From Minisyncoccota bacterium (GTDB taxonomy: Bacteria; Patescibacteriota; Minisyncoccia; Phycocordibacterales; JAACPR01): 64,000 nt of DNA. The DNA lies in assembly GCA_041674225.1 (NCBI GenBank), contig JBAYWG010000001.1, forward strand, positions 390,273-454,272, given 5' to 3'. The notes under the pieces are model-generated. The model had not been told where the DNA came from, ran no database searches, and saw only the letters and a program-made list of their open reading frames with translations. Within the stretch, counting starts at the first letter, position 1, and every line of letters begins with the position of its first letter. A program made the position numbers and the translations under genes. Of this stretch, positions 28,601 to 46,418 are shown piece after piece.

Positions 28601-30343
28601 ATGTACATCGAGGAAAACAAACTAAAAAGTTTTATGATCGATTCTGGATTAGTTTCAGAAACCGATATTATTAATGCAGAAAAATCTATTGCAAATAATC
28701 CAAATCAATCTGTTGGAGATTTTTTAATCAGTGAAGGAAAAATTAGTGATGACGATTTAAAAAGAGTCCAAGCATATCTTGTTGGAATTCCTTTTATTGA
28801 TATTTCTGCACAAAAAATTCCTTTTGAAATTCTTTCTATTATTCCAGAACCGATTGCGAGAAATAGAAACATTATTGCTTACGGGAAAGACGAGAATCGT
28901 TTAGAGGTTGCAATGCTTGATACAGATGATCTTTCTTCTTTGGATTTTATAAAAAAGAAAACAGGTTTTACAATTCTTCCTCGACTTACTTCTTCTTCTT
29001 CTATAAAAAAAGCGCTAGTTCAATATCAAAAAAGCTTGAAAGCCGATTTTGGAGATTTGATTAAAAAAGATACAGACGCAATGAAGACTGTGAAAGAGGG
29101 AGAGGAAAATGAAAAAAATCTTTTAGAAGTGGCGCAAGATTTGCCTGTGGTGCGTATTGTGGATACTCTTTTGAAACATGCGATTTTACAAAACGCTTCT
29201 GATATTCATATTGAGCCACAAGAAAATGAATTGCTTGTGCGATATCGTGTGGACGGAATACTTTTTGAAGCGATGACCCTTCCAAAACAAAGTGGACTTT
29301 CTATTGTTGCGAGAATAAAAGTTTTGGCGAGTTTGAAAATTGATGAAAAAAGATTGCCACAAGATGGGCGTTTCAAGATTGATTTAGATGGAGAAAAAGT
29401 TTCTTTCCGTGTTTCTATTTTGCCAACATATTATGGAGAGAAAACTGTTATGCGTATTTTGCGCGAGGGTGGTGGTGGATATACTCTGGAATCACTTGGA
29501 TTTCATGGAGAAGGTCTGGAAAAAATCTATGAAGCTACAAAACAAACTACCGGAATGATTCTAACCACTGGACCGACTGGTTCTGGAAAATCTACAACGC
29601 TCTATACTCTGCTTGATATTTTGAATACTCCGGATGTAAATATTTCTACAATCGAAGATCCTGTGGAATATCAAATGAAACGCGTTAATCAAACTCAGGT
29701 GAAACCAGAGATTGGTTTTAGTTTTGCTGAAGGTTTGAGGAGTTTGGTGCGACAAGATCCCGACATTATCATGGTGGGAGAAATTCGAGATGGGGACACT
29801 GCCGGGCTTGCTATCAACGCTGCTCTTACAGGACACTTGGTGCTTTCAACTTTGCACACCAACTCTGCGGCTGGAACCGTGCCTAGACTTTTGGACATGG
29901 GTGCAGAATCTTTTCTTTTGGTATCTACGCTTCGCGTGATTATTGCGCAAAGACTTGTTCGAAAACTTGGAAAAAATAAAGAAAAATATTTTTTGTCGGC
30001 AGCTGGACTGAAGTCACTAGCGAAATCAGTTAACTTGGATAATGTTCTGAAAGTTTTAATTGATGAAAAAATCGTTGAACCAAAGGCTACTTGGGATAAA
30101 ATTCCGTTTTATAAAGCAAAAGTTAATGGAGATGATGATGGTTTTTCTGGACGAATTGGAATTCATGAAATTTTAAAAACTTCGCCTACGATTCAGGAAA
30201 TGATTATTGCGGGAAAAACTGCTGAAGATATAGAGGAGCAAGCAAAAAAAGAGGGAATGATGACTATGCTTGAAGACGGAATTTATAAAGCTGTGCGAGG
30301 TGTGACAACTATCGAAGAAGTGTTGAGAGTTATTTCTGAATAA
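28601..30343 (+). CDS. pilB: Type IV pilus assembly ATPase (GspE/PilB family)
   Basis: GspE N-terminal domain, Walker A GPTGSGKSTT, Asp/His boxes. Confidence 0.85.
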   Translation: MYIEENKLKSFMIDSGLVSETDIINAEKSIANNPNQSVGDFLISEGKISDDDLKRVQAYLVGIPFIDISAQKIPFEILSIIPEPIARNRNIIAYGKDENRLEVAMLDTDDLSSLDFIKKKTGFTILPRLTSSSSIKKALVQYQKSLKADFGDLIKKDTDAMKTVKEGEENEKNLLEVAQDLPVVRIVDTLLKHAILQNASDIHIEPQENELLVRYRVDGILFEAMTLPKQSGLSIVARIKVLASLKIDEKRLPQDGRFKIDLDGEKVSFRVSILPTYYGEKTVMRILREGGGGYTLESLGFHGEGLEKIYEATKQTTGMILTTGPTGSGKSTTLYTLLDILNTPDVNISTIEDPVEYQMKRVNQTQVKPEIGFSFAEGLRSLVRQDPDIIMVGEIRDGDTAGLAINAALTGHLVLSTLHTNSAAGTVPRLLDMGAESFLLVSTLRVIIAQRLVRKLGKNKEKYFLSAAGLKSLAKSVNLDNVLKVLIDEKIVEPKATWDKIPFYKAKVNGDDDGFSGRIGIHEILKTSPTIQEMIIAGKTAEDIEEQAKKEGMMTMLEDGIYKAVRGVTTIEEVLRVISE

Positions 30344-30345
30344 TT

Positions 30346-31560
30346 ATGAAATTTAAATATAAAGCACAAAACACAGCCGGAAATTATGTAGAAGATGTTG
30401 CAGATGCAAAAGACAGTTTTGATTTAGCGAGAATTTTGAAAGAAAAAGATTTAAATATGATTTCTGCAAAGCCAGTGAACGGTGGAAAGTTTTCTCAAAT
30501 AATTCAATCAATCACAAATTTTGGAACAGTTTCTACAAATGAAAAAATTCTTTTTGGAAAAAATCTTTCTTCAATGCTTGAAGCGGGTCTGCCACTTTCG
30601 CGCGCTATCGAAGTAATGGGAAGACAAAGTCGAAACAAAAAATTTAAGTTTGTGATGAACAGTATTAATGATTCTATTAAAAGCGGAGATTCTTTGTCGG
30701 GTGCACTATCAAAATTTCCTCATATTTTTCCAAGTCTTTTTATTTCAATGGTGCGAGCGGGAGAAGAATCTGGTGATTTGGTTGGATCTTTGGGAATCGT
30801 TTCTACCCAAATGGAAAAAACTCACGAACTGAAAAAGAAAATTCAAGGAGCGATGATTTATCCAGGAGTGATTATCACAGCGATGGCAGGTATTGGTATT
30901 TTTATGTTAATTTTTATCGTGCCAACTTTGACAAAAACTTTCGTTGAACTGAATGTCGAACTTCCAAAATCTACGCAGTTCATTATTAGTATTTCTGACG
31001 CTTTTAAAAACAATACTATTATTTTGCTTGGAGCTTTAGCTTTTGTAATCGGTTTGATTTTTATGGGTTTCAAAACTTCAACAGGGAGAAGAATTATGGA
31101 TTGGACTCTTTTGCATATGCCTTTGGTTTCTAGATTGGTAAAAGAAACAAATTCTGCGAGAACTACTCGGACACTGTCTGCGTTGATAATTTCTGGAGTG
31201 CCTTATCTAACTGCTGTAGATATTACGACTGGTGTGATGCAAAATTCTTATTACAAAGCAGTGCTAAAAAAAGCTGGAAAAAATGTTGAGCTTGGTTTGC
31301 CTGTGGCAAAAATCTTTGAAGAAAATCAAAAGTTGTATCCTGTGTTTGTGTCAGAGATGATTGCGGTAGGAGAGGAGACTGGTGAACTTGGAAACATGCT
31401 TATGAAAGTGGCTGTGTATTATGAAAACGAAGTTGAACAAAAAACAAAAAACATGTCGACAATTGTGGAACCATTTTTGATGATCGTAGTTGGAGCCGCT
31501 GTGGGATTTTTCGCACTTTCGATGATCAGTCCGATGTATTCATTGGTAGAGAATATATAA
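30346..31560 (+). CDS. pilC: Type IV pilus inner-membrane platform protein (GspF/PilC family)
   Basis: Two T2SSF repeats and three TM segments. Lies 2 nt after pilB. Confidence 0.8.
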   Translation: MKFKYKAQNTAGNYVEDVADAKDSFDLARILKEKDLNMISAKPVNGGKFSQIIQSITNFGTVSTNEKILFGKNLSSMLEAGLPLSRAIEVMGRQSRNKKFKFVMNSINDSIKSGDSLSGALSKFPHIFPSLFISMVRAGEESGDLVGSLGIVSTQMEKTHELKKKIQGAMIYPGVIITAMAGIGIFMLIFIVPTLTKTFVELNVELPKSTQFIISISDAFKNNTIILLGALAFVIGLIFMGFKTSTGRRIMDWTLLHMPLVSRLVKETNSARTTRTLSALIISGVPYLTAVDITTGVMQNSYYKAVLKKAGKNVELGLPVAKIFEENQKLYPVFVSEMIAVGEETGELGNMLMKVAVYYENEVEQKTKNMSTIVEPFLMIVVGAAVGFFALSMISPMYSLVENI

Positions 31561-32753: not shown

Positions 32754-34553
32754 ATGAATAGAGGTTTTACACTTATCGAAACTGTAATCGGCGTTGCGAT
32801 TTTTGCAATGATAGCTACATCTGCATGGATGGGGCTTGTAAAAATTTTTGATGCTGTCGCAATTCTTCGAACAAAAACTATTGCAGTAAACTTGGCGACA
32901 GAACAAATTGAAATTATTAGAAATCTTCCTTATTCAAAAGTTGGAATTCAAAACGGACTCCCTGCAGGAGATGTTCCTTATGAACAAATATTAGAAAGAG
33001 ACGGAAAAAGTTTTCTTGTGAGAACTGCAATCAGAAATATTGATTTAGCATTTGATGGATTAATTGGTGGTACTCCAAACGATTTATCTCCAGCAGATAA
33101 TAAATTAGTCGAAGTGGAAGTTTCTTGTTCAAATTGTGCAAAACAAATTGACCCAATTGTTTTTAGTACGAGAATCGCTCCAATGGCTTTAGAGACAACT
33201 GGAAATAACGGCGCATTATTTATTTCTGTCTTTGATTCCAACGGGCAACCAGTGTCCGGTGCAAATGTTTCTGTGGAATTTAATGCCACAACAACTCCAG
33301 TAATTATAAATGACATGACGAATGCTTCAGGTCTTCTACAAATTATTGATGCTCCTCCAGGGGTAGAGGCTTATGAAATTTTGGTCACAAAAGCCGGGTA
33401 TTCTTCAGAAAGAACTTATGCAACTGGTGAAGTTTCAAATCCTTCGCCAAATAAATTGCATGCGAATGTGGTTTCAGGACAAGTTACTCAAATTAGTTTT
33501 TCGATTGATAGACTTTCTGTTCTGACTGTAAACACTAGAACTGTTGCTTGCTCTCCAATTTCAAGTGTCGATTTCAATATTGAAAGTTCAAAAATGATTG
33601 GTGTGAACACTCCTAAATATGATGTGGATCATGTAACAAATGTTTCAGGACAGAAAATTATCAGTAGTTTAGAGTGGGATACGTATAATTTAACTTTGTT
33701 GGAATCAGGGAAACATTTGATTGGTGCAAATCCTAGCCTTCCCTTTGATGTTTTTGCTGGTACTGAACAAACTTTAGATTTAATTTTGGGATCATCAGAT
33801 CCAAACGCTGTGCTCGTGACTGTGGTGGATGGAGCAAATCAACAATTACTTTCTGATGCAATAGTAAAATTCACTCAAGGTTCTGTGATGAAAACTGCAA
33901 CAACTGGTAGTGGTTATCTTGAGCAAACAGATTGGTCTGGAGGTCAGGGACAAATCAATTTTATAAATGAATCACAATATTTGACACAAGATGGGGGAAT
34001 AGAAACAAACAGTCCAGATGGAGAATTAAAGTTAGATTATTTTGCGGGCAATTATTCGAACAGTGGTTTATTAGAATCTTCTGTTTTTGATATTGGTACC
34101 ACTACAAATTTCTTGACACTTTCTTGGACGCCATCTGATCAGCCTCAGTTTTCAGGATTAAATTCTGCAAAATTTCAAATCGCTACAAATGAAACTTTAG
34201 AAGACACGCCCGAGGTTCCTTTGGTTTGGGATTTTAGAGGTCCAAGTGGTAGTAGTGGAACTTATTATGATACTCCGGGGCAAGCCATTGCGAGCCTGCA
34301 CGACGGCGACAGATATTTGAAATATAAATTATTTTTATCTACTGGAGATTCTTCTGTAACACCAAATATCTCTGATGTGCGTTTTAGTTTTGCTACCGAC
34401 TGTACTCCTGTGGGACAGGCCTATGTTGGTGGGTTAAATAACTCTTCTTATAATTTGGAAATTTCAAAACCAGGTTATGAGACGATAAATTATTCTGGAC
34501 TTCTTTTCAATCAACCTTGGCAAACTGTTAAAATAACTTTGAATCCATTATAA
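32754..34553 (+). CDS. Large prepilin-type (N-terminal methylation motif) pseudopilin-like protein, 599 aa
   Basis: N-terminus MNRGFTLIETVIGVAIFAMI is a class III signal peptide. Confidence 0.7.
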   Translation: MNRGFTLIETVIGVAIFAMIATSAWMGLVKIFDAVAILRTKTIAVNLATEQIEIIRNLPYSKVGIQNGLPAGDVPYEQILERDGKSFLVRTAIRNIDLAFDGLIGGTPNDLSPADNKLVEVEVSCSNCAKQIDPIVFSTRIAPMALETTGNNGALFISVFDSNGQPVSGANVSVEFNATTTPVIINDMTNASGLLQIIDAPPGVEAYEILVTKAGYSSERTYATGEVSNPSPNKLHANVVSGQVTQISFSIDRLSVLTVNTRTVACSPISSVDFNIESSKMIGVNTPKYDVDHVTNVSGQKIISSLEWDTYNLTLLESGKHLIGANPSLPFDVFAGTEQTLDLILGSSDPNAVLVTVVDGANQQLLSDAIVKFTQGSVMKTATTGSGYLEQTDWSGGQGQINFINESQYLTQDGGIETNSPDGELKLDYFAGNYSNSGLLESSVFDIGTTTNFLTLSWTPSDQPQFSGLNSAKFQIATNETLEDTPEVPLVWDFRGPSGSSGTYYDTPGQAIASLHDGDRYLKYKLFLSTGDSSVTPNISDVRFSFATDCTPVGQAYVGGLNNSSYNLEISKPGYETINYSGLLFNQPWQTVKITLNPL

Positions 34554-34555
34554 AT

Positions 34556-35161
34556 ATGAAAAAAGGTTTCACTTTAATTGAATCAGTAATTGCAGTAGCC
34601 ATATTTAGCTCGGTTGTTGTTGCCATTGGAGCTTTTCAAAGAGATGTTTTTTTCTTTAATGATATTTTACAAACAGGATTAAACAATATTACAGAAGCCA
34701 GAAAAGTTTTGAGACCATTTGTTGGGGAAGTGCGTGGAGCACAACCTTCAAATCTTGGTGCTTCAGCTGTGCAAAATGCAGAAGAAAAATCTTTTATATT
34801 TTTTACAGACTTAAATGCAGATGGATTAAAAGAAAGAGTGCGATATTTTGTTGATGGAGATACTTTTAAAAAGGGTGTTATCGAGCCAATTGGTAATCCA
34901 TTTGTATATGATCAAAATAATGAAAAAATAACTAATGTGGTAAATGATGTTGTAAATGTAGACACGAAATTTTATTACTATGGTTCAAATTATAATGGTA
35001 CAGAAGAAACACCACCGCTAGCCTTCCCCGTGTCTCCTTCGGAAGTTCGTTTGGTAAAAGTTGATTTAACCATTGATACAAATCCGAATCGTGCTCCTGG
35101 TAGAATGACTATCACAACACAAGCAACAATTAGAAATTTGAAAGACAATTATGAAGACTAA
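34556..35161 (+). CDS. Prepilin-type pilin/pseudopilin
   Basis: MKKGFTLIESVIAVAIF N-terminus. Confidence 0.7.
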   Translation: MKKGFTLIESVIAVAIFSSVVVAIGAFQRDVFFFNDILQTGLNNITEARKVLRPFVGEVRGAQPSNLGASAVQNAEEKSFIFFTDLNADGLKERVRYFVDGDTFKKGVIEPIGNPFVYDQNNEKITNVVNDVVNVDTKFYYYGSNYNGTEETPPLAFPVSPSEVRLVKVDLTIDTNPNRAPGRMTITTQATIRNLKDNYED

Positions 35162-36596
35162 TAATTTAAAAAATAATAGTGGAATAATTCTTTTGAATAC
35201 TTTAGTTTTTGGAATGGTTGCCGTGATGTTAATTGTTGCACTCTCTAGCTGGTTTACTGTGACTTATCGAGGCTCAAGAAAAGTTATTGATGAAGAGCAA
35301 GCCTTTCATATTGCTGAAGCAGGAATTGAATATTACAGATGGCATTTAGCTCACGCACCACAAGATTTTACTGACGGAAATGCTGCGAATGTTGCTCAGC
35401 CTTATAAGCATGATTTTTTTGATAAAAATGATGAAAAAATTGGTGAGTTTGAATTAACTATTATAGCTCCAGAAAGTGGTTCGACTTTGGTGACTGTTGA
35501 GTCAAAAGGAATCTTGGATGCATCAGGAGTTTCAAAAACTATTAGAGCAGAATTCGCAAAACCTACATTTGCAAAATATGCTTTTATTTCAAATGAAAAT
35601 ATTCGTCTTGGCGAAGGTACAGAAGTTTTTGGGTTGATTCATTCAAACGAAGGTGTTCGTTTTGAGGGAGTTGCTCATAATTTGGTGACGAGCGCCCAGA
35701 CTACTTATGATGATCCAGATCATGGAGGAGCAAAAGAATGGGGAGTTCATACTCATGTGGATCCTGTTGATCCAATGCCGAATACTCCTTTGCCAAATAG
35801 ATTTGATATTTTTCAATCTGGGCGCGAGGTGGGTGTGCCAGCAATAGATTTTGATGGACTTACTGCCACAATGGCCGATTTAAAATCAAAGGCGCAGGCA
35901 GATGGCAGATATCATGGAAGCTCTGGAAAGAGTGGATATAATTTAGTTTTAAAAACTAATGGAACTTATCAATTATACAAAGTGAATTCTTTGATTAATC
36001 CCTCTAACTCTTGCAATAACGCTCTTGGTCAGCCTGATTGGGGAAGTTGGAGTATAAATAAACGATCTTTGGTTGGTACATATCAAATGCCGGATAACGG
36101 TGTAATTTTCCTTGAAGATCATGTTTGGGTTGAAGGACAAATAGATGAAGAAAGATTGACTATCGTGGCAGCACGATTTCCAGAGGCTCCTGGGCAATAC
36201 AGAAATATTATTATCAACAAAGATATTTTGTATTCAAACATGGATGGGCAAGATGTTTTGGGTTTGATTGCGCAGGGAGATATTAATATTGGAATGTATA
36301 GTGATGATGTTTTAGATATTCATGCAGCGATGATCGCAAAGAATGGAAGAATTGGAAGATATTATTACCGACCACCTTCAAATAATAATGGATGCTCTCC
36401 TTATCATACGAGAAACACAATTAATGTTTATGGAATGATTGGCACAAACGGTAGATATGGTTTCGCTTACACAGATGATACTGGTTATATAAACAGAAAT
36501 GTGACTTACGACGCAAATCTTCTTTATAATTCTCCGCCAGAGTTTCCACTTACTGCAGATCAATACGAAATAATTTCTTGGGAAGAATTGGATTAG
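35151..36596 (+). CDS. Pilus-associated membrane-anchored protein (PilX-like, hypothetical)
   Basis: N-terminal hydrophobic anchor and a large extracellular region, within the pilus cluster. Confidence 0.45.
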   Translation: MKTNNLKNNSGIILLNTLVFGMVAVMLIVALSSWFTVTYRGSRKVIDEEQAFHIAEAGIEYYRWHLAHAPQDFTDGNAANVAQPYKHDFFDKNDEKIGEFELTIIAPESGSTLVTVESKGILDASGVSKTIRAEFAKPTFAKYAFISNENIRLGEGTEVFGLIHSNEGVRFEGVAHNLVTSAQTTYDDPDHGGAKEWGVHTHVDPVDPMPNTPLPNRFDIFQSGREVGVPAIDFDGLTATMADLKSKAQADGRYHGSSGKSGYNLVLKTNGTYQLYKVNSLINPSNSCNNALGQPDWGSWSINKRSLVGTYQMPDNGVIFLEDHVWVEGQIDEERLTIVAARFPEAPGQYRNIIINKDILYSNMDGQDVLGLIAQGDINIGMYSDDVLDIHAAMIAKNGRIGRYYYRPPSNNNGCSPYHTRNTINVYGMIGTNGRYGFAYTDDTGYINRNVTYDANLLYNSPPEFPLTADQYEIISWEELD

Positions 36597-36622
36597 TTGA
36601 AAATTGATATATAATATTTTTA

Positions 36623-38773
36623 ATGATTGAAAAAATATTTAATACAAATTTAATTTCAAAATTGATTTTAAGTTTAGTTGTTCTTTTACCAATTTTCTAT
36701 TTACCAGCAAGTTTATCGTCTTTGATTTTTGCCAAAACAGCTTTGCTTTATTTTTTTGTTTTTGTTGTTGCTCTATGTGCTGTATTTGCTTTTCTAAAAT
36801 CAAAAGAAAAGTTTTTAGATTTTAGTTATTTTAAATTTGGTGCACTTGCAGTGGTGCTTTCTTATACTGTTTCGGCGTTACTTTCAGAAAGTTTCAGGGT
36901 TTCTTTTTGGGGAAGGGATTTAGCAATAGATAGTTGGGCAACAGTATTCAGTTTGTTTTTGCTGTTTTGTTTAATTACAAGACATTTCCAAAAGAGTTAT
37001 GCACTAAATGTTATTTTCAGTTTTATATTTGTTTCTGGGTTACTTTCAATTTTTCAATTATTAAATATTTTAGTTCCAAGCTTTCCAACTCTTGGGATTT
37101 TCTACGACGCATCATCTAGTATTTTGGGAAAAGTTAACGATCTCTCTTTGTTCTTGGTTGTTGGTGTTATTTTGATTACTTTAGCTCTAGAGCAGCTTAA
37201 AATGACAAGTAAGTTTAAAGCCATTCTTTATGTAATTGGTATTTTGAATTTGAGTCTAATATTGCTAATTAACTTTAATTTAAGTCTCTATATTATAATT
37301 GGTTTTGGAGTTATCTATTCAATTTATAAGTTTGTAGTTTATAAAAATATTAATCAAAAACTAAAAGGCGAAGATTTAAAAGTGTTCGGTGCCTCTTTGT
37401 TTTTGTTAACCATTTCTGTTATTTGGTTATTTTTTGGATCAGGGATAAGTTCAGAGTTATCTAAAAAATTAAATTTTAATTATGTTGAGGTTCGACCATC
37501 TCTTTCTAATACAATTGAAATAAGTAAAAAATCTTTAGAACAGAATTTATTCTTTGGATCAGGCCCAGCAACTTTTGAAAGAATGTGGCCGCAGTTGAGA
37601 TCAGATGAAGTTTTAAAAACAGATTTTTGGAATGTTGATTTTAGATTTGGATACGGATTAATTTCATCTTTTGGAGTTACTTTAGGTTCTGTAGGAGTTA
37701 TCGTGTGGATTATATTTTTGATAATGGTTCTTTCATATGTTATTAAATCGTTACTATTTAAAACAAAAGATTTAAGCTCTAAATTTATTTTAGATGCTTT
37801 TGCAATTTCAACCGTAGTTCTTTGGATTATTTCGGTGATGTATATTCCAACCATTAGCTTATTTGCTCTCGCGTTTATTTTCACAGGAATATTATTTGCT
37901 TTACTAAAAGATATTAAAGTAATAGAAGTTTTAAAAATTCAATTCAATCAATCTGCTGGAAAAATTTTAGCAATTGTATTCATTGTTGTTTTAGGAATAT
38001 TTTATTATGTGTTGTTAGGAAAATTTGTAGCACATTCATATTTTCAAAAAGCTCAGTTTGCTGTTGTTGAGAATAATACCGATCAAGCTCTAATTTATTT
38101 AGAGAAGTCTATAGAAAAAGATGATTTAGATATTTATCACCGATCTTTGTCAGTAATTTATACTAATTTTTTGTATCAAGAGATTAATAGCGAAAAAGAA
38201 TTAAATAAAGAAGAGTTGGAATCTATTATTCAGAAAATAATACAAAATTATGATTTGGCTATTAAATATGATCAAAATAATTACTCCAATTATTTGAACA
38301 TGGCTGACTTTTTTGCAGAGCTGCTGGCATTGGAAGTTTCACCAGAAGAAGCTTACACAATGTCTACTAATTTATATAACAAAGCTGGGCAACTAAAACC
38401 TAATAATCCTTATATTGAATTACAAAAATCTAAGCTGAGTTTTTTTAATCAAGAATATTCTAAAGCCAAAGAGGGAATCGCTAAAACAATCTCACTTAGA
38501 CCTCAATATTACGAAGCATATCTTGCTCTTTCTCAAATGGAACTTGAAATGGGAAATGGTCAGATTGCTGTCGATACTTTGACTGAATATTTGAAAATAA
38601 TGCCAGATGATCATAATGCGATGTTTCAATTAGGGTTACTTTATGCCGGTGTGAATGATTATCAAAATGCTGCTATTATTTTTCAAAACCTTCAATCAAT
38701 ATATCCAGAAGATCAAAACCTAAGGGGTGTGTTGGAAAACATTAAAAATGGTAATTTAAGTGATACAATATAA
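36623..38773 (+). CDS. Polytopic membrane protein with C-terminal TPR repeats (O-antigen ligase/Wzy-like, hypothetical)
   Basis: At least 10 predicted TM helices, then a TPR-like C-terminal domain. Confidence 0.45.
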   Translation: MIEKIFNTNLISKLILSLVVLLPIFYLPASLSSLIFAKTALLYFFVFVVALCAVFAFLKSKEKFLDFSYFKFGALAVVLSYTVSALLSESFRVSFWGRDLAIDSWATVFSLFLLFCLITRHFQKSYALNVIFSFIFVSGLLSIFQLLNILVPSFPTLGIFYDASSSILGKVNDLSLFLVVGVILITLALEQLKMTSKFKAILYVIGILNLSLILLINFNLSLYIIIGFGVIYSIYKFVVYKNINQKLKGEDLKVFGASLFLLTISVIWLFFGSGISSELSKKLNFNYVEVRPSLSNTIEISKKSLEQNLFFGSGPATFERMWPQLRSDEVLKTDFWNVDFRFGYGLISSFGVTLGSVGVIVWIIFLIMVLSYVIKSLLFKTKDLSSKFILDAFAISTVVLWIISVMYIPTISLFALAFIFTGILFALLKDIKVIEVLKIQFNQSAGKILAIVFIVVLGIFYYVLLGKFVAHSYFQKAQFAVVENNTDQALIYLEKSIEKDDLDIYHRSLSVIYTNFLYQEINSEKELNKEELESIIQKIIQNYDLAIKYDQNNYSNYLNMADFFAELLALEVSPEEAYTMSTNLYNKAGQLKPNNPYIELQKSKLSFFNQEYSKAKEGIAKTISLRPQYYEAYLALSQMELEMGNGQIAVDTLTEYLKIMPDDHNAMFQLGLLYAGVNDYQNAAIIFQNLQSIYPEDQNLRGVLENIKNGNLSDTI

Positions 38774-38778
38774 ACGAT

Positions 38779-38964
38779 ATGAAAAAATTTCAACAAGTAA
38801 AATTATTAGTGTTAGTGGTTTTATTATTAGTATCGCCGATTTTATGGATAGTTTTGGGGAATATTCCGGTAGATTTTAACGACACTCAATCTTGGATTTA
38901 TTTAATTACTTTTGCAGTTTTGGCACTTGCTGTGTTTTTTGCTTTAGACTCGAATAAAAAGTAG
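38779..38964 (+). CDS. Small two-TM membrane protein
   Basis: 61 aa, hydrophobic. Confidence 0.35.
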   Translation: MKKFQQVKLLVLVVLLLVSPILWIVLGNIPVDFNDTQSWIYLITFAVLALAVFFALDSNKK

Positions 38965-39015
38965 TTTTATTGTGGATATGGTGGAAATTATTTTAAAATA
39001 ATCCGTGTTACAATT

Positions 39016-39690
39016 TTGATATATTCATTTAAAATAAATATAATGATAAAAAACATTTTAAGCACAATATTTATTTTTACCCTGCTGATTGGATGCATTC
39101 CTTTTTTTGAACCATCGATTCTAAATGCTATAGAAGATGAAGTTCTTGTAAACCTTACTGTTGATTCTGGAATTTCTATTACATCTCCTGCGGACGTGAC
39201 AATGTCTAACTTAGGTACTTCTGTAAATACATCTACTGGTGGAGCTGTTTGGAATGTAAAAACCAATGATCCTGACGGCTATAGTCTTTCTGTAAAAGCA
39301 TCTGCTGCTCCTGCTATGGTTAGTGGTGGAAATAGTTTTTTGGATTACACCGAAGCTACACCAGGAACTCCTGATGCTTGGTCTGTTGATGCCTCTACTA
39401 TTCAATTCGGTTTTTCTGGGTTAGGGACAGATGTTGTCAATGTGAACAGTGATCAATATGCTGCTACAGGTCAAACTACATGTGATAATGGTGTGGCTTC
39501 ATCGACTGTTAATTCAACACTAAGATTTTTAGGTTTTGAAACATCAAATCAAACTCTTGCAACTCGAGCAGCAACCACAACTACGGCTGGAATTGATACG
39601 AGAATTTGTTTCGCGGCTGCGCAAAACGGAGTATATGCACCAGCAGGGGCATATCAAGCTACTATTACAGCTACTGCAGTGGCGCTTTAA
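39016..39690 (+). CDS. Secreted WxL-like cell-surface protein (paralog A)
   Basis: Signal peptide. Shares ISITSPADV / GYSLSVKASAA / YQATITATAVAL blocks with 40701-41456. Confidence 0.5.
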   Translation: MIYSFKINIMIKNILSTIFIFTLLIGCIPFFEPSILNAIEDEVLVNLTVDSGISITSPADVTMSNLGTSVNTSTGGAVWNVKTNDPDGYSLSVKASAAPAMVSGGNSFLDYTEATPGTPDAWSVDASTIQFGFSGLGTDVVNVNSDQYAATGQTTCDNGVASSTVNSTLRFLGFETSNQTLATRAATTTTAGIDTRICFAAAQNGVYAPAGAYQATITATAVAL

Positions 39691-39693
39691 GAT

Positions 39694-40704
39694 ATGGATT
39701 ATATAATAAATTTTATGTTTAAAAGAGAATCAAAAATAAATTCTTTAGCGATTTTGTTTTCATTGATTTTTATTTTAATTTCTATCCCTCAAGTTTCTGA
39801 TGCTCAGGTTACAAGGGAACAGTTGGGAGTAGAGCTTTTGAATGATTTTGTTTTGGAACCAGCTAAAAATGAAGTTTTATTAAACCCCGGAGAATCTTCT
39901 GTGGAGTATTTATCTATTATTAATAGAAAAGCCGTAAATGTGGATTTTCAAATTCAAATAGAAGATATTGTTGGATCTGATGATATTGCAGAACAGGTAA
40001 AACTTTTAGGTGATGAAAAAGGTCCTTATTCTCTAAAAGATTTTTTGATTCCAGAAATTACGGAATTTACACTTGAGCCAGGCGAAAAAATTACTATTCC
40101 TGTACGTGTAGAGCTTTCACAGGATGCTGAGCCTCGAGGTTATTATGGTGCTTTAATTGTTTCGTCTAGAGGAGATGATAGTAGAGTAGATTCTAATGGA
40201 GAAGTAAGTGGTAAAACAGAAATTATAACTAGATTGGGTTCAATTTTTCTTGTGAGAATAAATGGAGATGTGATTGAAAAAAGTGAGCTGGTAGATTTTA
40301 AAACAATCGGTCCTAAAAAATACGTTTATTTCTCTAATCCAGAAGGTTTTGAGGTTGCGATAAAAAATAAAGGAAATGTTCACTTGGTTCACTATGGAGA
40401 AATAAAAATTAAAAATCTTTTTGGTAAAGAAGTGACTAGTCTGCCAATAAATGCTTTCTTTTCACTTCCAGATTCAACTAGATATAGAGAATTGTCGTGG
40501 AAAGATGGTTTTGCTTTTGGTTTTTATAGAGCGGAATTAGCTTTATATCAAGGTTTTGAAAATGAAGATGGTTTTCTAGATTCAAATATTTGGTTTTTTG
40601 TACTTCCTTGGAAACTAACACTAGGTTTGTTGCTGTTAGCCTTCGTTATCTTTGTAGTTATTAGATATTTTAAAAAGAATTTTAAACTGGAAAGAAAAAA
40701 ATGA
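39694..40704 (+). CDS. Cell-surface protein with signal peptide and C-terminal TM anchor (DUF916/DUF3324-like)
   Basis: Sec signal, beta-rich body, C-terminal hydrophobic helix plus a basic tail. Confidence 0.45.
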   Translation: MDYIINFMFKRESKINSLAILFSLIFILISIPQVSDAQVTREQLGVELLNDFVLEPAKNEVLLNPGESSVEYLSIINRKAVNVDFQIQIEDIVGSDDIAEQVKLLGDEKGPYSLKDFLIPEITEFTLEPGEKITIPVRVELSQDAEPRGYYGALIVSSRGDDSRVDSNGEVSGKTEIITRLGSIFLVRINGDVIEKSELVDFKTIGPKKYVYFSNPEGFEVAIKNKGNVHLVHYGEIKIKNLFGKEVTSLPINAFFSLPDSTRYRELSWKDGFAFGFYRAELALYQGFENEDGFLDSNIWFFVLPWKLTLGLLLLAFVIFVVIRYFKKNFKLERKK

Positions 40705-41456
40705 GAGATGTTTTTCATTCTATTCTAATTACATTACTAGTTTTTATTTCAATCATCCCGGTTATTTCTGTTGGACAAGTACGAGAAAGCGCAAATTATA
40801 AAATAGAAAGAGATAGTTTGAATGTAGGAGGTGGATTTAGTTCTAGTGCTAATTATCAGACGGAGAGTTCTGTTGGTGAGGTATCAACTGGTTTTTCAGA
40901 TAGCGACAACTATACTGTTTCAGCTGGATTTCAACAAAGTTTAGAGGCATCTTACATCTCAATTTCTTCTCCTGCTGACTTAAATATGGATTCTGTGAAT
41001 GGTTTGACTGGAGGTGTTTCAACTTCTTCAATTGCTTGGACTGTAACTACAAATAACAACGCAGGATATTCTTTGGCTATTAAAGCGAGCACAGATCCTG
41101 CTTTGAAATCGGTACTCGATGAATTTCAGGATTATGGAATCGCTGTGACGGATCCAGATTTTGATTTTTCTATAGATTCTACAACAGCAGAATTTGGATT
41201 TAGCCCAAGTGGGACACATATCTTAGATAAATTTAAAGATAACGGCAGTGTTTGTAATTCTGGTTCTGGAGACACTCTTTATAAGTGTTGGGAAGGTCTA
41301 GCAACTTCTTCACAAACCGTAGCTCAAAGTGCGTCTTCAAACGATCCTTCTGGAACTGTTACAACAATTCACTTTCAAGCTGAGTCTGGTGCAGATAAAA
41401 TTTTAACGGCGGGGAGTTATTCTGCTACAATAACAATGACGGCCTTGGCGCTTTAG
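40701..41456 (+). CDS. Secreted WxL-like cell-surface protein (paralog B)
   Basis: Paralog of 39016-39690. C-terminal YSATITMTALAL resembles the WxL C-terminal motif with the Trp replaced. Confidence 0.5.
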   Translation: MRDVFHSILITLLVFISIIPVISVGQVRESANYKIERDSLNVGGGFSSSANYQTESSVGEVSTGFSDSDNYTVSAGFQQSLEASYISISSPADLNMDSVNGLTGGVSTSSIAWTVTTNNNAGYSLAIKASTDPALKSVLDEFQDYGIAVTDPDFDFSIDSTTAEFGFSPSGTHILDKFKDNGSVCNSGSGDTLYKCWEGLATSSQTVAQSASSNDPSGTVTTIHFQAESGADKILTAGSYSATITMTALAL

Positions 41457-41467
41457 TCATTTTTGAA

Positions 41468-42586
41468 ATGAATAAAAGAAAAGAAAGTATAATATTTTTT
41501 GTAGTAATTTTATTTTTATTTAGTACACCTCTTTTTTTAAAGGCCCAATTAAACACACAATCTGGTGATACGGATGTAAATTTGATAGTGGAGGGTTGTA
41601 ATAATAATTTAATTTGTGAGGCAAATATAGGAGAAGATTTGGCAACATGTCCTAATGATTGCTCATTTATACCTCCAGCCGAAGATGATGAAGAGCCTAC
41701 TCGTGATTCTAATCGTCCTCCTAGTTTGAGACAAGATTTTTTTTCTGAATCTAATTTAATTCAACATCTTCCACCTACTAATTTAAAAATATCAATTGAA
41801 GAAAAGAACGTTTATTTATTTTGGAATAATCCCAAAGATGTAAATTTTGATTTTATTAGAATAATGAAAAATAATTATTACACCACCAATCCATATGAAG
41901 GGAGTATTGTGTATGAAGGAAATTTAGAATCACAGTCTGATTATTTGGAAAAGTTTGATGAAGATTATTTTTATATATTTTTTGCAAAGTATAAAGATGG
42001 AAATTTCTCTGCGCCGGTAGTTGTGAGCGTGAATTCAAGAAAACCTAGTATTTTTGAAGATATTAAAAAAGAAGTGAAGGATGATATTGAAATAAATCTA
42101 GAAAAACCTTTCGAACCAATATTCTTTTCAGATAAACTAAATCTATATGAAATAAATTTTACTCAGAACGGCGAAAGAATCTTCTGGAAAAAGGATATTT
42201 TAAAGGCTTATAGCGATATTCCAATAGAATTATCTTTTTCAAAGAAAAATATTTTTGCACCAATAGATAATTATTTTATAGAAATAGATTTTTTTGATTC
42301 AAATGATGTCTTTTTGAGAAGAGAAGTGATGAAGATAGATTATATTGGAGGAGCTGAGACATATAAGGGTAATATTTCTAATCTATCTTTTGTGAGTAGA
42401 TTGAGTTTTAAAATTTACATTGCGGAAAAAGGCGAACAAAAAAATGTTGTTGCTGGTATAATAGATTTTAGTAATAAAGTAGAAGAATTTCCAACCACTA
42501 GATCTTTTGAAAAATATATACTCATAATACTCATTATGTTGTTTATATTATTCATCTTTTTCAAGAAGAAACGCAAGGATAACTAA
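41468..42586 (+). CDS. Secreted protein with C-terminal TM anchor and basic tail (FN3-like, hypothetical)
   Basis: Signal peptide, C-terminal ILIILIMLFILFIFFKKKRKDN. Confidence 0.45.
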   Translation: MNKRKESIIFFVVILFLFSTPLFLKAQLNTQSGDTDVNLIVEGCNNNLICEANIGEDLATCPNDCSFIPPAEDDEEPTRDSNRPPSLRQDFFSESNLIQHLPPTNLKISIEEKNVYLFWNNPKDVNFDFIRIMKNNYYTTNPYEGSIVYEGNLESQSDYLEKFDEDYFYIFFAKYKDGNFSAPVVVSVNSRKPSIFEDIKKEVKDDIEINLEKPFEPIFFSDKLNLYEINFTQNGERIFWKKDILKAYSDIPIELSFSKKNIFAPIDNYFIEIDFFDSNDVFLRREVMKIDYIGGAETYKGNISNLSFVSRLSFKIYIAEKGEQKNVVAGIIDFSNKVEEFPTTRSFEKYILIILIMLFILFIFFKKKRKDN

Positions 42587-42644: not shown

Positions 42645-45600
42645 ATGAAAAAATTATTAATTAAAACTTTAACATTCAAAATAATCTTAATATTGGCCTT
42701 ATTAAATTTTTCTTTAATTGATTCAAAAGACGTCTTTGCCGCTATTAATCCAGAAATAAATTATCAAGGAAGACTTCTTGATGACCTTGGAGATCCTGTT
42801 GCTGATACTGATTTTAATATTCAATTTAAACTATATACAGTAGATACTGGAGGTACGGAAATTTGGACAGAAAATCATTGTTATTCTCCGGATGATGGTG
42901 CAACTTGTGATGGAACAGGTGTAGATAGCAGAATTACCACAAGAGACGGTTTGTTTAGTGTGATGCTTGGAAGTGTCAACTCACTTTCTGATGTTGATTT
43001 CAATCAAACACTTTATTTGGGAATAAATATTGGAGGAACGGGAGACACTCCTAGTTATGACGGAGAAATGACACCTAGAAAAGTACTCGGAGCTGTACCT
43101 GCAGCTTTTGAAGCTGGAAAATTGAATGGAATTACATCCGATCAATTTTTTAGAAATGATATTTTAAATGCTACAAACAGTGCAACAACTTCACTTGCGA
43201 TTCAACAAAACGGTGCCGGAAAAGTGGCGGAATTTTTCGGCTCAACTGGAAATAGTTTGTTTACAGTGCAGTCGAATGGAAATGTGGGGATTGGGACATC
43301 AACACCATCTGCAATGCTTGCTGTACATGGAACATTCTATGCTTCAAGTACTTCAAGTTTTGGTTCTGATGTCTCACTACTTAATTCTTCAAAATTATAT
43401 TTGAACCCATATGATTATATTTATAGTAATGGTGGAGGTTCTACATATTTATCTAGCCCTTTTGCACAATCTGTATTTATAACTTCAGGACAATCAGCTC
43501 AGTCTGCCTCTCTGAAACTATCAACTTCTGAGAATAAAAGTGCTGGACTTATACATTATGACGTAGCTCATGCAAATGGAAGATTACTTGAAATGTATTC
43601 AGAACCAGGTGTTGCCTTGTCTTTTTCTCCTGCCCTTACTGAAGCAATGCGAATTACCACTGGAGGAAATGTTGGAATTGGTACAACGAATCCGACTGCC
43701 AAACTAGAAGTTAAGACTTCAGATACTGAGACATTTAGCGTATCAGGAAGAGCTCTAGGAGATTTTACCGGTTCACCAACAATTGGTGCAACAAACGGAA
43801 ACGTTTTCATAACGGATGGTGTTCGCGTTGGTAGTTATAGTGGTCTTACTTCTGTAAATATTGGACAAACCGATTACGCTAATAGTCTTATACAAGTTGG
43901 TGGTGGAAGCGCGCTGAATGGTATAGGTGTCCGACTTGGAAGTGATGAGACATACCAAGGCCCTTTTAAGGTTTTGAGTGGGAATAATACTGAGTTGTTC
44001 AGAATTATGCCAACAGGGAATGTCGGGATTGGTGCGACAGCACCTCTTGAAAAATTAGATATAGGAACTGCAGTTGCTAGCAGTGAAACAGGAAGTGCAA
44101 ATATTAAATTCAGTTACACACCCCAACCTTCAGATTTTAACAACTCTATTCGTAATTCATTTTCAGGAGTAAATAGTTTTCAAACTATGGCTTTTTATGT
44201 AAAAAGTACGAGTGAAGTAAACCCTCTTACTCTTACCGGAGATAATAGAGTTTTAATAAATGGAACACCCTCATTTAATACTGCTGTTGCTGTTGGTGCT
44301 GGGGCGGCAGGTTTGACTCCGACAGGTCAGCTTCAAATCCTCGATACTTATAATGGGGGATCTTTTGCTCACGAAACTCTGGTAATGAATTATTCTGCAA
44401 ATCAGTACAAAACAAGTTTCGGAGCTAATTTTAACAACGTTGCGGCAGACAATTTCCTTACACTTAACATTTCTTCAGGTTCATCAACTCAGGCGGCAAA
44501 TGTACAGACGTGGTTAGGAAATGGGAATGTTGGAATTGGAACAACAACACCTTCAAAAGAACTTTCAGTAGATGGTGATTTTGTGGTTACTGGTAATATT
44601 GAGGTTAGTGATTCAACTTTTCTTTCTGAAGATTATTTAAACTTTTCAAATACTGTTGGAAGCTCTGGGTTTGGGCTTAGAAACAATGCTGGTGTAATCG
44701 AGTATAAAGATTCTTCTGGTGCGTGGATTCCTTTAAATGAGATTGGTCAGGAGACATACGGGTACGTTAAATTTTCTGATGTAAAATCTGATGGTACGGA
44801 TGCTGGTACGGCAACTTCAGGCTCTTGGTTTACAAGAACTCTAAATACAGAATCAGACGATACTATTGGTTCAACTCTTTCTTCAAATACTTTTACACTA
44901 CCAGCTGGTACTTATCGCATAGATGCGAAAGTTCCGGGATTCCATGTTAATGGACATCAATCTAGGTTATATAACGTTACAGACGGTGCCGTTTCTTTAT
45001 TAGGGTCAAATGCAACTGCTGTAAATTTACTTTCTGCTACACATTCATTTATCAATGGTGTTATAACAATAGCCTCAGAAAAAACTTTTCGTATTGAACA
45101 AAGAGTTCAAACAACTAGAGCTAGTGATGGTCAGGGTTCTGATAATGGTTTTGCTGGAACTGATGAATTATATACGGTTGTAGAGGTTAGTAGTTTAACG
45201 GCAGAATCTGCAGCTTCTGGATCTTGGACAGTTAATGGAAGTGATATAAGTTTTGAAGGGGGAAAGGTTGGTATTGGAACATCTAACCCAACTACAGGTT
45301 TATTGGTTTTGGAAAGCTCTGCATCCTCAGCGTTTGACGGATTGTCGCTTATAAACAGTGTATCAGGAACAGGGCTCGGCTCTAATCGTATTTTGTTTGG
45401 TCGAAGTGTCGCTAGCAATCATCAGCAAGCCGCTATTATTTCAGATATCACGCTAGCAAACGACTTCGGTGAAGGCTACCTCGCCTTCCAGACACAGACT
45501 GCAGGAGCACTAGCGGAGCGTATGCGTATAACAAACTCAGGTGATATTGGAATTGGTACTAGTACTCCACAAAGAAGACTACATGTTCAAGTTGGTTCGG

Positions 45601-46418
45601 ATGTTGCACCTGTTCGTTTCCAAGATTCAAATGGATATTGTGAAATTAATCCAACTTCTACTACTTGGACATGTACCTCTGATCAAAGATTGAAAGAAAA
45701 CATTCTTGACGTTGCAAGCACTACACCAGATTTATTTGAAAAAATGATGCAATTACGACCTGTAACTTTTGAATGGAAAACAGATGAAACAAACACTACT
45801 CGAGTTGGGCTTATTGCTCAAGAGGTCGAACTAATTTTTCCTGAGTTTGTGACAACAGATTCTGAAACAGGCTTAAAAACTGTTGCTTACGGTTCTTTTG
45901 TTCCATATTTAATATCTGTAGTGCAAGATTTAGCTAATAAACTTGGTGAGTTAGCAAAAAGAATTGATGAAATAGATTTAGTTGGAGGATTTATTGCAAA
46001 ACTAACAATCGGTTCTAGTGAAAAACCAACTGGCGTGACTTTATATGATGAAGTGACAGGAGATCCTTATTGTATGTCTGTGAGAAATGGAGATATGGTG
46101 ACAAAATTTGGTGAATGTACAGATGAATCACAAGAACCTACAGGAAATTCTAATGATGATACTGGAGAAATACCTCATATTTTCAACTCGAATATAGAAG
46201 AAGAGGAGAATCCAGATATTATTTTTGAAGATGAAATTGTTGATGTTGAAGAAATCTCCGAGGTAGATGAAGTTGAAGAAATTATTGAAATTGAAGATGT
46301 TTCTATAATAGAAGAAACAGAAGAGGTAGAAGAAGTGGAGGAACTGGACACAACAGAAGAGGTGCAAGTGATTTTTGAAACGAATAATTCCTCAGGTTCT
46401 GTAGAATTAAATCTGTGA
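42645..46418 (+). CDS. Giant secreted tail-fibre-like protein with C-terminal peptidase S74 intramolecular-chaperone domain and acidic tail
   Basis: At least six GNVGIGTxxP repeats. TSDQRLKENI...LIAQEVE matches the S74 auto-cleaving chaperone signature. Poly-Glu C-terminus. Confidence 0.7.
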   Translation: MKKLLIKTLTFKIILILALLNFSLIDSKDVFAAINPEINYQGRLLDDLGDPVADTDFNIQFKLYTVDTGGTEIWTENHCYSPDDGATCDGTGVDSRITTRDGLFSVMLGSVNSLSDVDFNQTLYLGINIGGTGDTPSYDGEMTPRKVLGAVPAAFEAGKLNGITSDQFFRNDILNATNSATTSLAIQQNGAGKVAEFFGSTGNSLFTVQSNGNVGIGTSTPSAMLAVHGTFYASSTSSFGSDVSLLNSSKLYLNPYDYIYSNGGGSTYLSSPFAQSVFITSGQSAQSASLKLSTSENKSAGLIHYDVAHANGRLLEMYSEPGVALSFSPALTEAMRITTGGNVGIGTTNPTAKLEVKTSDTETFSVSGRALGDFTGSPTIGATNGNVFITDGVRVGSYSGLTSVNIGQTDYANSLIQVGGGSALNGIGVRLGSDETYQGPFKVLSGNNTELFRIMPTGNVGIGATAPLEKLDIGTAVASSETGSANIKFSYTPQPSDFNNSIRNSFSGVNSFQTMAFYVKSTSEVNPLTLTGDNRVLINGTPSFNTAVAVGAGAAGLTPTGQLQILDTYNGGSFAHETLVMNYSANQYKTSFGANFNNVAADNFLTLNISSGSSTQAANVQTWLGNGNVGIGTTTPSKELSVDGDFVVTGNIEVSDSTFLSEDYLNFSNTVGSSGFGLRNNAGVIEYKDSSGAWIPLNEIGQETYGYVKFSDVKSDGTDAGTATSGSWFTRTLNTESDDTIGSTLSSNTFTLPAGTYRIDAKVPGFHVNGHQSRLYNVTDGAVSLLGSNATAVNLLSATHSFINGVITIASEKTFRIEQRVQTTRASDGQGSDNGFAGTDELYTVVEVSSLTAESAASGSWTVNGSDISFEGGKVGIGTSNPTTGLLVLESSASSAFDGLSLINSVSGTGLGSNRILFGRSVASNHQQAAIISDITLANDFGEGYLAFQTQTAGALAERMRITNSGDIGIGTSTPQRRLHVQVGSDVAPVRFQDSNGYCEINPTSTTWTCTSDQRLKENILDVASTTPDLFEKMMQLRPVTFEWKTDETNTTRVGLIAQEVELIFPEFVTTDSETGLKTVAYGSFVPYLISVVQDLANKLGELAKRIDEIDLVGGFIAKLTIGSSEKPTGVTLYDEVTGDPYCMSVRNGDMVTKFGECTDESQEPTGNSNDDTGEIPHIFNSNIEEEENPDIIFEDEIVDVEEISEVDEVEEIIEIEDVSIIEETEEVEEVEELDTTEEVQVIFETNNSSGSVELNL

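Follow-up and report, generated by a model that had tools for sequence, protein, structure and literature searches.

A candidate S74-matured surface fibre with an exchangeable middle segment, encoded behind a Pam-like gene cluster in a Paceibacteria genome

What does a tail-fibre-like gene do in the chromosome of an ultrasmall patescibacterium, directly behind a cluster of genes for small secreted and membrane-anchored proteins? This question is raised by a stretch of 64,000 nucleotides from a metagenome-assembled genome (MAG) of a Minisyncoccota bacterium (assembly GCA_041674225.1, contig JBAYWG010000001.1, positions 390,273 to 454,272 of the forward strand), which as a whole is called the window in the following and which has a low G+C content of about 0.30-0.42. 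The gene in question (42645..46418, + strand) encodes 1257 aa plus a stop codon, which is the length given in an initial annotation of this DNA, and its product is identical to NCBI MFA7193728.1, named 'MAG: tail fiber domain-containing protein [Candidatus Paceibacterota bacterium]' and encoded on a 476-kb contig. To our knowledge, host finding and host attachment in bacteria of the Candidate Phyla Radiation (CPR, Patescibacteria) are understood for little more than a handful of cultured Saccharibacteria, and we know of no host for most Paceibacteria. The answer that we favour, with a probability of roughly 0.6, is that the protein is a Sec-exported, trimeric cell-surface adhesin that is matured by its Peptidase S74 domain, that it resembles the MAT fibres of Bdellovibrio, and that it is coupled to a Pam-like pilus operon. 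Along the chain, the following features can be distinguished:

42645..42737, + strand: signal peptide of the Sec type, aa 1-31 (MKK..., hydrophobic core, site between VFA and A), as read from the sequence
42738..43169, + strand: N-terminal β-rich (Ig-like) module, aa 32-175 (INYQGRL...DGEMTPRK), conserved, with the C79/C88 pair
43278..43307, + strand: first repeat, GNVGIGTSTP, aa 212-221, the N-side boundary of the variable cassette
43308..45524, + strand: variable cassette, aa ~222-960, replaced in the same-locus fibres of syntenic genomes
43665-43685, 44016-44036, 44523-44543, 45261-45281 and 45540-45560, + strand: the other five repeat copies, located by regular expression
44760..45194, + strand: C1q/TNF-like jelly-roll knob, aa 706-850, homologue of the C-terminal tip of small phage tail fibres
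45525..45677, + strand: last conserved shaft segment, aa 961-1011, with the final repeat (GDIGIGTSTPQRRLHV) and the C999/C1010 pair
45678..45980, + strand: Peptidase S74 intramolecular chaperone domain, aa 1012-1112, with the catalytic pair S1012/K1017
45981..46130, + strand: conserved two-cysteine module, aa 1113-1162 (IGSSEKPTGVTLYDEVTGDPYC...GEC)
46131..46415, + strand: acidic low-complexity tail, aa 1163-1257, terminus ETNNSSGSVELNL

That the protein is an S74 fibre is the part of this explanation that we regard as near certain. The initial annotation had read an S74 domain from the stretch TSDQRLKENI...GLIAQEVE and had named the lack of an S74 match and of a conserved Ser/Lys dyad as the observation that would contradict it. 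The domain holds up, as Pfam PF13884 (Peptidase_S74) matches aa 1012-1069 with an E-value of 9.2e-15 and 55.1 bits, above the gathering score of 22, and is the only Pfam family in the fibre. The dyad is also conserved: S1012 and K1017, five residues apart, form the SDxxxK motif, and only four columns are invariant in the S74 alignment of 20 diverse homologues, namely these Ser and Lys residues plus the G and A of GxIAQE. The strict motif pattern is found in 52 of the 74 S74-like stretches of homologues, and several of the others are near variants. In the PDB, the family profile matches 8jov (3.6e-18), 6f45 (5.8e-14), T5 pb1 8hqz (3.7e-13), MYRF 7dc3 (1.6e-10) and GA-1 3gud (3.3e-5), and the Ser/Lys motif of the fibre family aligns with the corresponding motif in these solved S74 chaperones. 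Judged by sequence, the S74 domain of the fibre is genuine.

Chaperoned trimerization is an established behaviour of the S74 family, known from endoNF, T5 pb1 and Bd3182, and for this reason the C-terminal S74 chaperone would be expected to set three chains in register and to template the folding of a β-helical shaft. The S1012/K1017 pair would then cut the chain. Bd3182 of Bdellovibrio self-cleaves at its catalytic S782, and its crystal structure stops at A781, just before this residue (PMC10769870), which is why the cut in the fibre is predicted between T1011 and S1012. If motif and homology are a reliable guide, a 246-aa C-terminal fragment with the chaperone, the two-Cys module and the acidic tail would come off and a 980-aa mature chain (aa 32-1011) would be left, with the ...TSTTWTCT end of the segment aa 961-1011 as predicted mature C-terminus.

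These steps would be preceded by export, with the signal peptide being cut off after VFA. The only hydrophobic segment of the fibre is the N-terminal one (Kyte-Doolittle maximum at aa 4-27), and conservation among homologues begins just past the signal peptide, near the INYQG motif. The six cysteines are arranged as three local pairs (79/88, 999/1010, 1143/1158) that are spread along the chain, which fits an extracytoplasmic protein. The signal peptide, the S74 domain and the C1q/TNF fold described below together suggest a trimeric fibre that would be displayed on the cell surface.

What kind of shaft would be folded in this way? The expression G.[VI]G[IV]G[TA] occurs exactly six times (at aa 212, 341, 458, 627, 873 and 966), as compared to a mean of 0.0055 copies by chance (2000 composition-preserving shuffles), and is in all six copies directly followed by (S/T)xP; at least six such G(N/K/D)VGIGT repeats had been claimed before. 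Several copies are embedded in a longer motif, E.MRIT..GNVGIGT..P...L.V. The repeats with their flanks align to crystal structures of β-helix segments from Bdellovibrio fibres (Bd2133 8ond, E 1.8e-6; 8oml; 8ol4), and PHROGs tail-fibre families match along the length of the fibre. The repeats had earlier been viewed as typical of phage tail-fibre and endosialidase stalks; their best alignment is to the Bdellovibrio MAT fibres and not to endosialidase stalks specifically. The phage-type architecture as such, which had been proposed as well, is borne out by the PHROGs matches and by the phage tail-fibre tip domain at aa 706-850.

Could the gene then simply belong to a prophage, a tailocin or a contractile injection system that resides in the chromosome? 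The PHROGs matches and the name given to the protein at NCBI would agree with such an origin, but no phage family was found in a Pfam scan of the 20 larger open reading frames (ORFs) between 28.6 and 62.3 kb of the window, and the neighbours scanned are pilus, glycolysis and DNA-repair genes, not phage structural genes. Upstream of the fibre gene lie PilB (at 28601), PilC (at 30346), UDG and pseudopilins (at 32754 and 34556), and downstream TIM, PGK, RecJ, a histidine kinase, RNase H, ComEC and EF-G. Synteny of the locus with housekeeping genes extends over six assemblies, i.e. this one and five others, and together with the cellular neighbours this confirms that the gene is chromosomal, as had been stated in the initial annotation. 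Moreover, the product has a signal peptide, and its N-terminal module has no confirmed match in the 2.9 million viral contigs of IMG/VR (0 in a pattern scan that was confirmed by tblastn). A prophage origin was therefore rejected, and we regard this explanation as effectively refuted. As the gene is chromosomal in a Candidatus Paceibacterota MAG, it is plausible that its carrier is an episymbiont.

Since the N-terminal module is not found in viral contigs, the fibre can be understood as a chimera of a cell-specific base with a phage-type shaft, knob and chaperone. In the set of 120 homologues that was used for all domain counts, the module is present in 111, nearly always right after the signal peptide. 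AlphaFold2 (AF2) models aa ~38-147 as a β-rich domain with pLDDT values of at least 86 (mostly 89-96), a fold without significant match in the PDB and with weak, generic Ig/FN3-like matches only among predicted viral structures (BFVD). On the basis of these fold comparisons and of the IMG/VR result, a phage origin of the module was rejected. It was also considered whether the module is a relative of the pilins or of the FN3 and transmembrane (TM) protein encoded upstream, but this was rejected as well, since hhalign gave a probability of 0.2% with the pilin family and nothing with the FN3/TM family; the same low probability argues against the fibre being itself an Ig-like pilin that engages in donor-strand exchange. 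With 10,625 matched representative proteins (clusters at 50% identity) at E<=1e-3 and 2,174 at E<=1e-10, the N-terminal module alone defines a large family of more than 10,000 representative clusters, and proteins carrying it reach about 5,000 aa. When the GTDB species genomes were scanned with the module, 523 stretches were found to encode a relative. The best 80 of these, to which all locus counts below refer and many of which end at contig ends, are nearly all labelled Patescibacteria or unclassified MAGs. We propose that this module is the docking end of the fibre.

The opposite situation is met in the middle of the chain, as the best homologues resemble the fibre at its two ends only and the middle is private among the 120 homologues. 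The same locus in five other assemblies encodes homologues (P0002, P0004, P0005, P0006 and P0007), in the syntenic order pseudopilins, 481-aa gene, TPR gene, four small genes, fibre, TIM, PGK, HIT, RecJ. Identity to the window is mostly 60-89% for the flanking proteins of these loci, 61-68% for the fibre N-terminus and 53-77% for S74 plus Cys module, and it is 27-35% for fibre aa 241-860, which is the background for such a repeat-rich composition. The orthologous fibres differ in length (978 to 1701 aa) and have other domains, such as a phage tail collar, Kelch plus YadA-like repeats, or SO2946-like_C. Identity drops directly past the first GNVGIGTSTP (aa ~221) and returns at the last GDIGIGTSTPQRRLHV (aa ~960-966), and as these breakpoints fall on the first and the last repeat, the exchanged segment is bracketed by conserved repeats. 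The repeats plausibly serve as structurally compatible recombination joints; recombination at GxVGIGTxxP repeats would swap the binding cassette between lineages and leave both ends fixed. Constant ends in combination with a replaceable, partly phage-borrowed binding cassette are the pattern that is expected of a host-range determinant.

There is room for more than one fibre gene at this locus: in two syntenic genomes, a second fibre-sized gene follows in tandem, located between the first fibre gene and TIM (L005:15283-18513, 1076 aa with S74, and L006:8979-11771, 930 aa).

The phage-related part of the cassette is the knob at aa 706-850, which matches the tail-fibre family phrog_24210 with an E-value of 9e-28 and shares 43-44% identity with tail fibres of Sulfitobacter phages and of Synechococcus phage S-RIP1. 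It also matches 45 short metagenomic proteins that have the domain at their C-terminal end; two of them were examined for their context, and one adjoins a terminase gene, the other lies amid baseplate, tail-tube and collar-domain genes. As a PDB sequence search with aa 676-872 alone gave no match, the fold is recognized only via the AF2 model, which is a jelly roll with a pLDDT of 92.8. The best PDB matches of this model in Foldseek are the fibre domains of the cyanophages A4 and A-1(L), BclA, the F-ENA tip, C1q and TNF. Trimeric domains that bind ligands prevail among these, and the modelled knob is a candidate for such a domain. In the proposed mechanism, the distal cassette (aa ~222-960, including the knob) and the β-helix end exposed by the cleavage would bind the surface of a host or partner cell. 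Host binding by the fibre is plausible.

What speaks for binding rather than for digestion? S74 domains are classically joined to endosialidases and tailspikes, and the shaft could carry a polysaccharide depolymerase or a similar activity that digests the envelope of host or prey, in which case the protein would not primarily be an adhesin. Bd3182 resembles the P22 tailspike and has a surface cleft (PMC10769870), which would suit this idea. However, no catalytic domain was detected in the fibre by Pfam, NCBIfam, PHROGs or PDB sequence searches, and the only globular domain that was modelled is the C1q/TNF-like jelly roll, a binding fold, so that we consider an enzyme quite improbable.

If the fibre is an adhesin, which partner keeps it at the cell? 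The initial annotation had placed the gene next to a pilus cluster, and type IV pilus genes indeed lie upstream, but these are not the conserved partner. Near the fibre module, PilB, PilC, pseudopilins, TIM and PGK are found in 0-2 of the 80 loci, and with PilB, PilC and pseudopilins in 0-1, a conserved partnership with type IV pilus genes was rejected. The conserved partner is the Pam-like cluster at 39016-42586 instead, which comprises four genes:

39016..39690, + strand: secreted pilin-like protein, 224 aa as called, paralogue of the product of the ORF at 40701; recurs in 55/80 loci
39694..40704, + strand: protein with signal peptide and C-terminal TM anchor, 336 aa; recurs in 57/80 loci
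40701..41456, + strand: PamT-like pilin, 251 aa; recurs in 71/80 loci
41468..42586, + strand: protein with signal peptide, FN3 domain and C-terminal TM anchor, 372 aa; recurs in 57/80 loci

The order is fixed on one strand (pilin-like, 336-like, pilin-like, 372-like, fibre), and the complete four-gene set with the fibre is present in 33 of the 80 loci. In Ca. Mycosynbacter amalyticus, the Pam pilus consists of Ig-like pilins that are joined by donor-strand exchange, and the system includes the membrane-anchored PapD-like chaperones PamC and PamD as well as the FN3/TM terminator PamR (Troman et al. 2026 preprint, 10.64898/2026.03.03.709456). Among the 69 members of the pilin-like families, 42 match PamT and three match CPR_Pam_pilin_C, and both pilin-like proteins of the window end with ...ATIT.TA.AL. 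The 336-aa protein, with an architecture like that of PamC and PamD, is a candidate for a membrane-anchored pilus chaperone. Its family profile matches the WxL-interacting protein EfmWxLIP1 of Enterococcus faecium (9i25/9i1y, E 2e-8), and to judge from this sequence match the anchored 'chaperones' of CPR Pam-type systems and the DUF916/WxLIP proteins of Gram-positive WxL clusters may be related. The profile of the 372-aa family matches FN3 domains (E 6e-16), and its architecture is like that of PamR. As a whole, the region 39016-42586 has the appearance of a short pilus operon of the Pam type (CPR), here in a Paceibacteria genome. In a promoter/terminator scan of 38.6-48.5 kb, no excess over shuffles was found.

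Regarding the first gene of the cluster, orthologues of the 224-aa ORF are 214-222 aa long, and the TTG start at 39016 is therefore probably too far upstream. Syntenic loci hold a 62-64-aa ORF between the TPR gene and the orthologue of the 224-aa gene, corresponding to the interval 38774-39015 of the window. The preceding region, 32754-38773, lies 3' of PilB/PilC and encodes two pseudopilins, one of which is unusually large (599 aa) and bears a CarboxypepD_reg domain besides its N-terminal methylation motif, while the other has 201 aa. Also encoded there are a protein of 481 aa, for which a faint GspK-like match was obtained and whose TM segment is N-terminal, and a polytopic membrane protein of 716 aa that carries TPR repeats in its C-terminal part; this gene set is kept in syntenic genomes.

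A direct connection between the fibre and its neighbours is given by gene fusions. At 9 of the 80 loci, the 372-like ORF lacks a stop codon and reads on into the fibre gene:

Fusion ORFs (locus:coordinates): L036:5327-12556, L019:5555-14596, L023:5234-8956, L025:5110-8817, L056:4953-10103
Fusion ORFs, continued: L011:5696-7996, L048:5285-8074, L018:4-2556, L033:3053-5326; also the called protein P0031

The fusion path leads from the 372-like TM helix over a short basic loop and a fibre signal-peptide-like segment to the N-terminal module. About 14 of the 150 best representatives among called proteins accordingly bear the module at residue ~420-600 and not at ~30-60, and in P0031 residues 10-375 align with the 372-aa family (E 2.3e-77). 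The resulting topology is self-consistent, with the FN3 domain outside, the TM helix leading inward, the second hydrophobic segment leading outward to the AxA site, and the fibre outside again. Signal peptidase could split such a fused chain and so yield the usual pair of proteins. The recurrence of these fusions argues for a functional link between the fibre and the FN3/TM protein that goes beyond co-regulation, and the fibre is probably connected with the pilus system. Judging by the order of the genes and by their fusions, the N-terminal Ig-like module would hold the fibre to the cell at, or in the vicinity of, the pilus and the FN3/TM protein encoded upstream.

It is doubtful, but possible, that this link is a structural one, i.e. 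that the fibre is the host-recognition subunit of a CPR Pam-type pilus and that its Patescibacteria-specific N-terminal module plugs the trimer onto the pilus or onto the FN3/TM anchor. If so, a chaperone-assembled pilus would bear a receptor-binding fibre that derives from phages and can exchange its cassette. This cassette, at its fixed locus, would be the main determinant of the hosts to which a Paceibacteria lineage attaches, and two adhesion machineries would be combined in a hybrid for which there is no earlier description as a unit.

Alternatively, the fibre could be autonomous, with an N-terminal module that binds the wall or an S-layer and a pilus operon that is shared for co-regulation only. 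The MAT fibres of Bdellovibrio are displayed on the surface without a dedicated pilus, and their N-terminal domain has been proposed to bind a cell-surface element (PMC10769870). It would also fit that neither the pilins nor the FN3/TM family show homology to the N-terminal module, and that 16 of the 80 loci had none of the four neighbours upstream, although some of these loci are cut by contig ends. An autonomous fibre would not be expected to become fused to the FN3/TM gene repeatedly, however, and the gene order is fixed in most of the 80 loci while the housekeeping neighbours are not conserved. We therefore regard such independence from the pilus as unlikely and prefer the coupled, MAT-like adhesin.

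What is the role of the sequence behind the S74 domain? A poly-Glu tail, as described initially, is not present: the longest run of E or of D/E is four residues, and the S74 domain is followed by the 50-aa two-Cys module and then by the 95-aa acidic tail, which has 36 D/E and zero K/R. The two-Cys module is found in 45 of the 120 homologues, some of them without S74, and has no match in Pfam or NCBIfam. The extreme C-terminus (last 13 codons, 46377-46415) is kept in the closest relatives (P0002, P0003, P0004 and P0006-P0008), which have an ETNxSSGSVxLPxE-like ending after a non-conserved acidic tail, and it may be a recognition or sorting peptide. In the homologues P0009-P0014 and P0059, the S74 domain is followed by a Cys module, a Ser/Thr-rich spacer and a C-terminus that consists of a TM helix and a basic tail. 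In such TM-ended homologues, S74 cleavage would free the fibre from a membrane tether in a MYRF-like manner, and one may speculate that the extension keeps the precursor near the membrane until it has trimerized; in the fibre of the window there is no TM helix downstream of S74. Seven homologues (P0004, P0005, P0045, P0047, P0048, P0062 and P0069) have two S74 domains, one internal and one C-terminal, and would be cut into three pieces if both domains cleave.

Another possibility is that the fibre is shed after S74 cleavage and acts at a distance, e.g. as a decoy for phages with the same receptor-binding domain or as a soluble lectin. The fibre of the window has neither a membrane anchor nor a sortase signal, cleavage would detach the fibres of the TM-ended homologues, and Pam pili have been described as easily untethered. 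However, free shedding is hard to square with the conservation of the N-terminal module and with its genetic tie to neighbours that are anchored in the membrane, and a released factor appears very improbable to us.

Several points weigh against the coupled surface adhesin that we prefer. Trimerization, cleavage, surface display and host binding are all steps that we infer. No docking mechanism is evident, since the N-terminal module lacks detectable homology to the pilins or the FN3/TM family. The label 'Pam-like' rests on architecture, on one sub-threshold family match and on a preprint: the product of the ORF at 40701 matches NCBIfam NF058579 CPR_pilus_PamT with an E-value of 2e-11 and 43.8 bits as compared to a curated cut-off of 240, the 336-aa and 372-aa families were matched by no Pam model, and for the four upstream proteins Pfam gave nothing useful even at E<=10 and NCBIfam nothing but this sub-threshold match. 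That preprint places Pam pilins mainly in Saccharimonadia and Microgenomatia rather than in Paceibacteria (10.64898/2026.03.03.709456). The knob is terminal in the phage relatives, whereas it is internal here, 160 aa from the mature C-terminus, and the large extension past S74 has no explanation in the proposed scheme.

The fibre is a good and testable candidate for host recognition in a large, mostly uncultured group, and a comparison of cassette types with co-occurring organisms in metagenomes could predict hosts. A 'tail fibre-like' gene beside pam operons, so far unexplained, is thereby set in a context that bears on its function, and the range of Pam-like operons is widened to Paceibacteria. 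The anchored proteins of Pam-type systems may moreover be linked with the Gram-positive WxL-interacting proteins. The find is not categorically new, since the NCBI name already derives from the S74 domain and the Pam preprint already noticed the gene: in one sentence and with no further analysis, it mentions 'a tail fibre-like protein' that is central in pam neighbourhoods and consistently co-located (10.64898/2026.03.03.709456). In a literature search for Patescibacteria together with S74 or tail fibres, no dedicated paper was found, and a cryo-electron tomography paper on M. amalyticus does not mention fibres.

How does the fibre compare with known systems? Phage S74 fibres and tailspikes (K1F endoNF, T5 pb1 8hqz, GA-1 gp12 3gud, 8jov) have a homologous S74 domain in which the Ser/Lys pair is kept, and the domain at aa 706-850 is common to the fibre tips of podophages and myophages. 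In contrast to these, the protein described here is no virion component; it has a Sec signal peptide, an N-terminal module that is not in viral contigs, a chromosomal, syntenic, non-phage context and an extension past S74. The S74/ICA domain of MYRF (7dc3, profile E 1.6e-10) is homologous too, but the fibre has no TM helix past S74, is extracytoplasmic and not cytoplasmic/nuclear, and lacks a DNA-binding domain. In case of the Gram-positive WxL/WxLIP (DUF916) clusters, the similarity is that small secreted proteins, a C-terminally anchored protein and a large surface protein are combined in both; no WxL domain was detected in the small proteins of the window, and the relationship concerns the neighbours and not the fibre.

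In its architecture, the locus agrees with the Pam system, with secreted, Ig-like, PamT-like pilins, a 336-aa protein like PamC/PamD and a 372-aa protein like PamR. The differences are that the operon of the window is shorter (two pilins, one anchored protein), that its matches to Pam models are sub-threshold or absent, that the lineage is Paceibacteria, and that the fibre is not a pilin.

The closest known kind is the S74 subgroup of the Bdellovibrio MAT fibres, e.g. Bd3182, which have the same overall plan (Caulton et al. 2024, PMC10769870). In both, as far as the published description of the MAT domain goes, the signal peptide is directly followed by a conserved β-rich domain without PDB homologue. 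Both have a long shaft with recurring GxVGIGTxxP-type loops, which in case of the fibre align to the capped β-helical segments of 8ond, 8oml and 8ol4, a mosaic, swappable distal part on a constant base, TNF-like binding domains, and an S74 chaperone with SDxxxK. A further presumed likeness is that either gene is chromosomal and belongs to a bacterium living on others. The other MAT-bearing organisms in the supplementary table of that study are further predators and an Omnitrophica bacterium, and no Patescibacteria term was found in its supplement text (PMC10769870). The fibre described here differs from the MAT fibres in that it comes from a Patescibacteria cell, in that 145 aa more follow past S74 (Cys module and acidic tail, with a TM anchor in some relatives), in that the TNF/C1q-like domain is internal and not terminal, and in that its gene ends a pilus-like operon and is sometimes fused to the FN3/TM gene.

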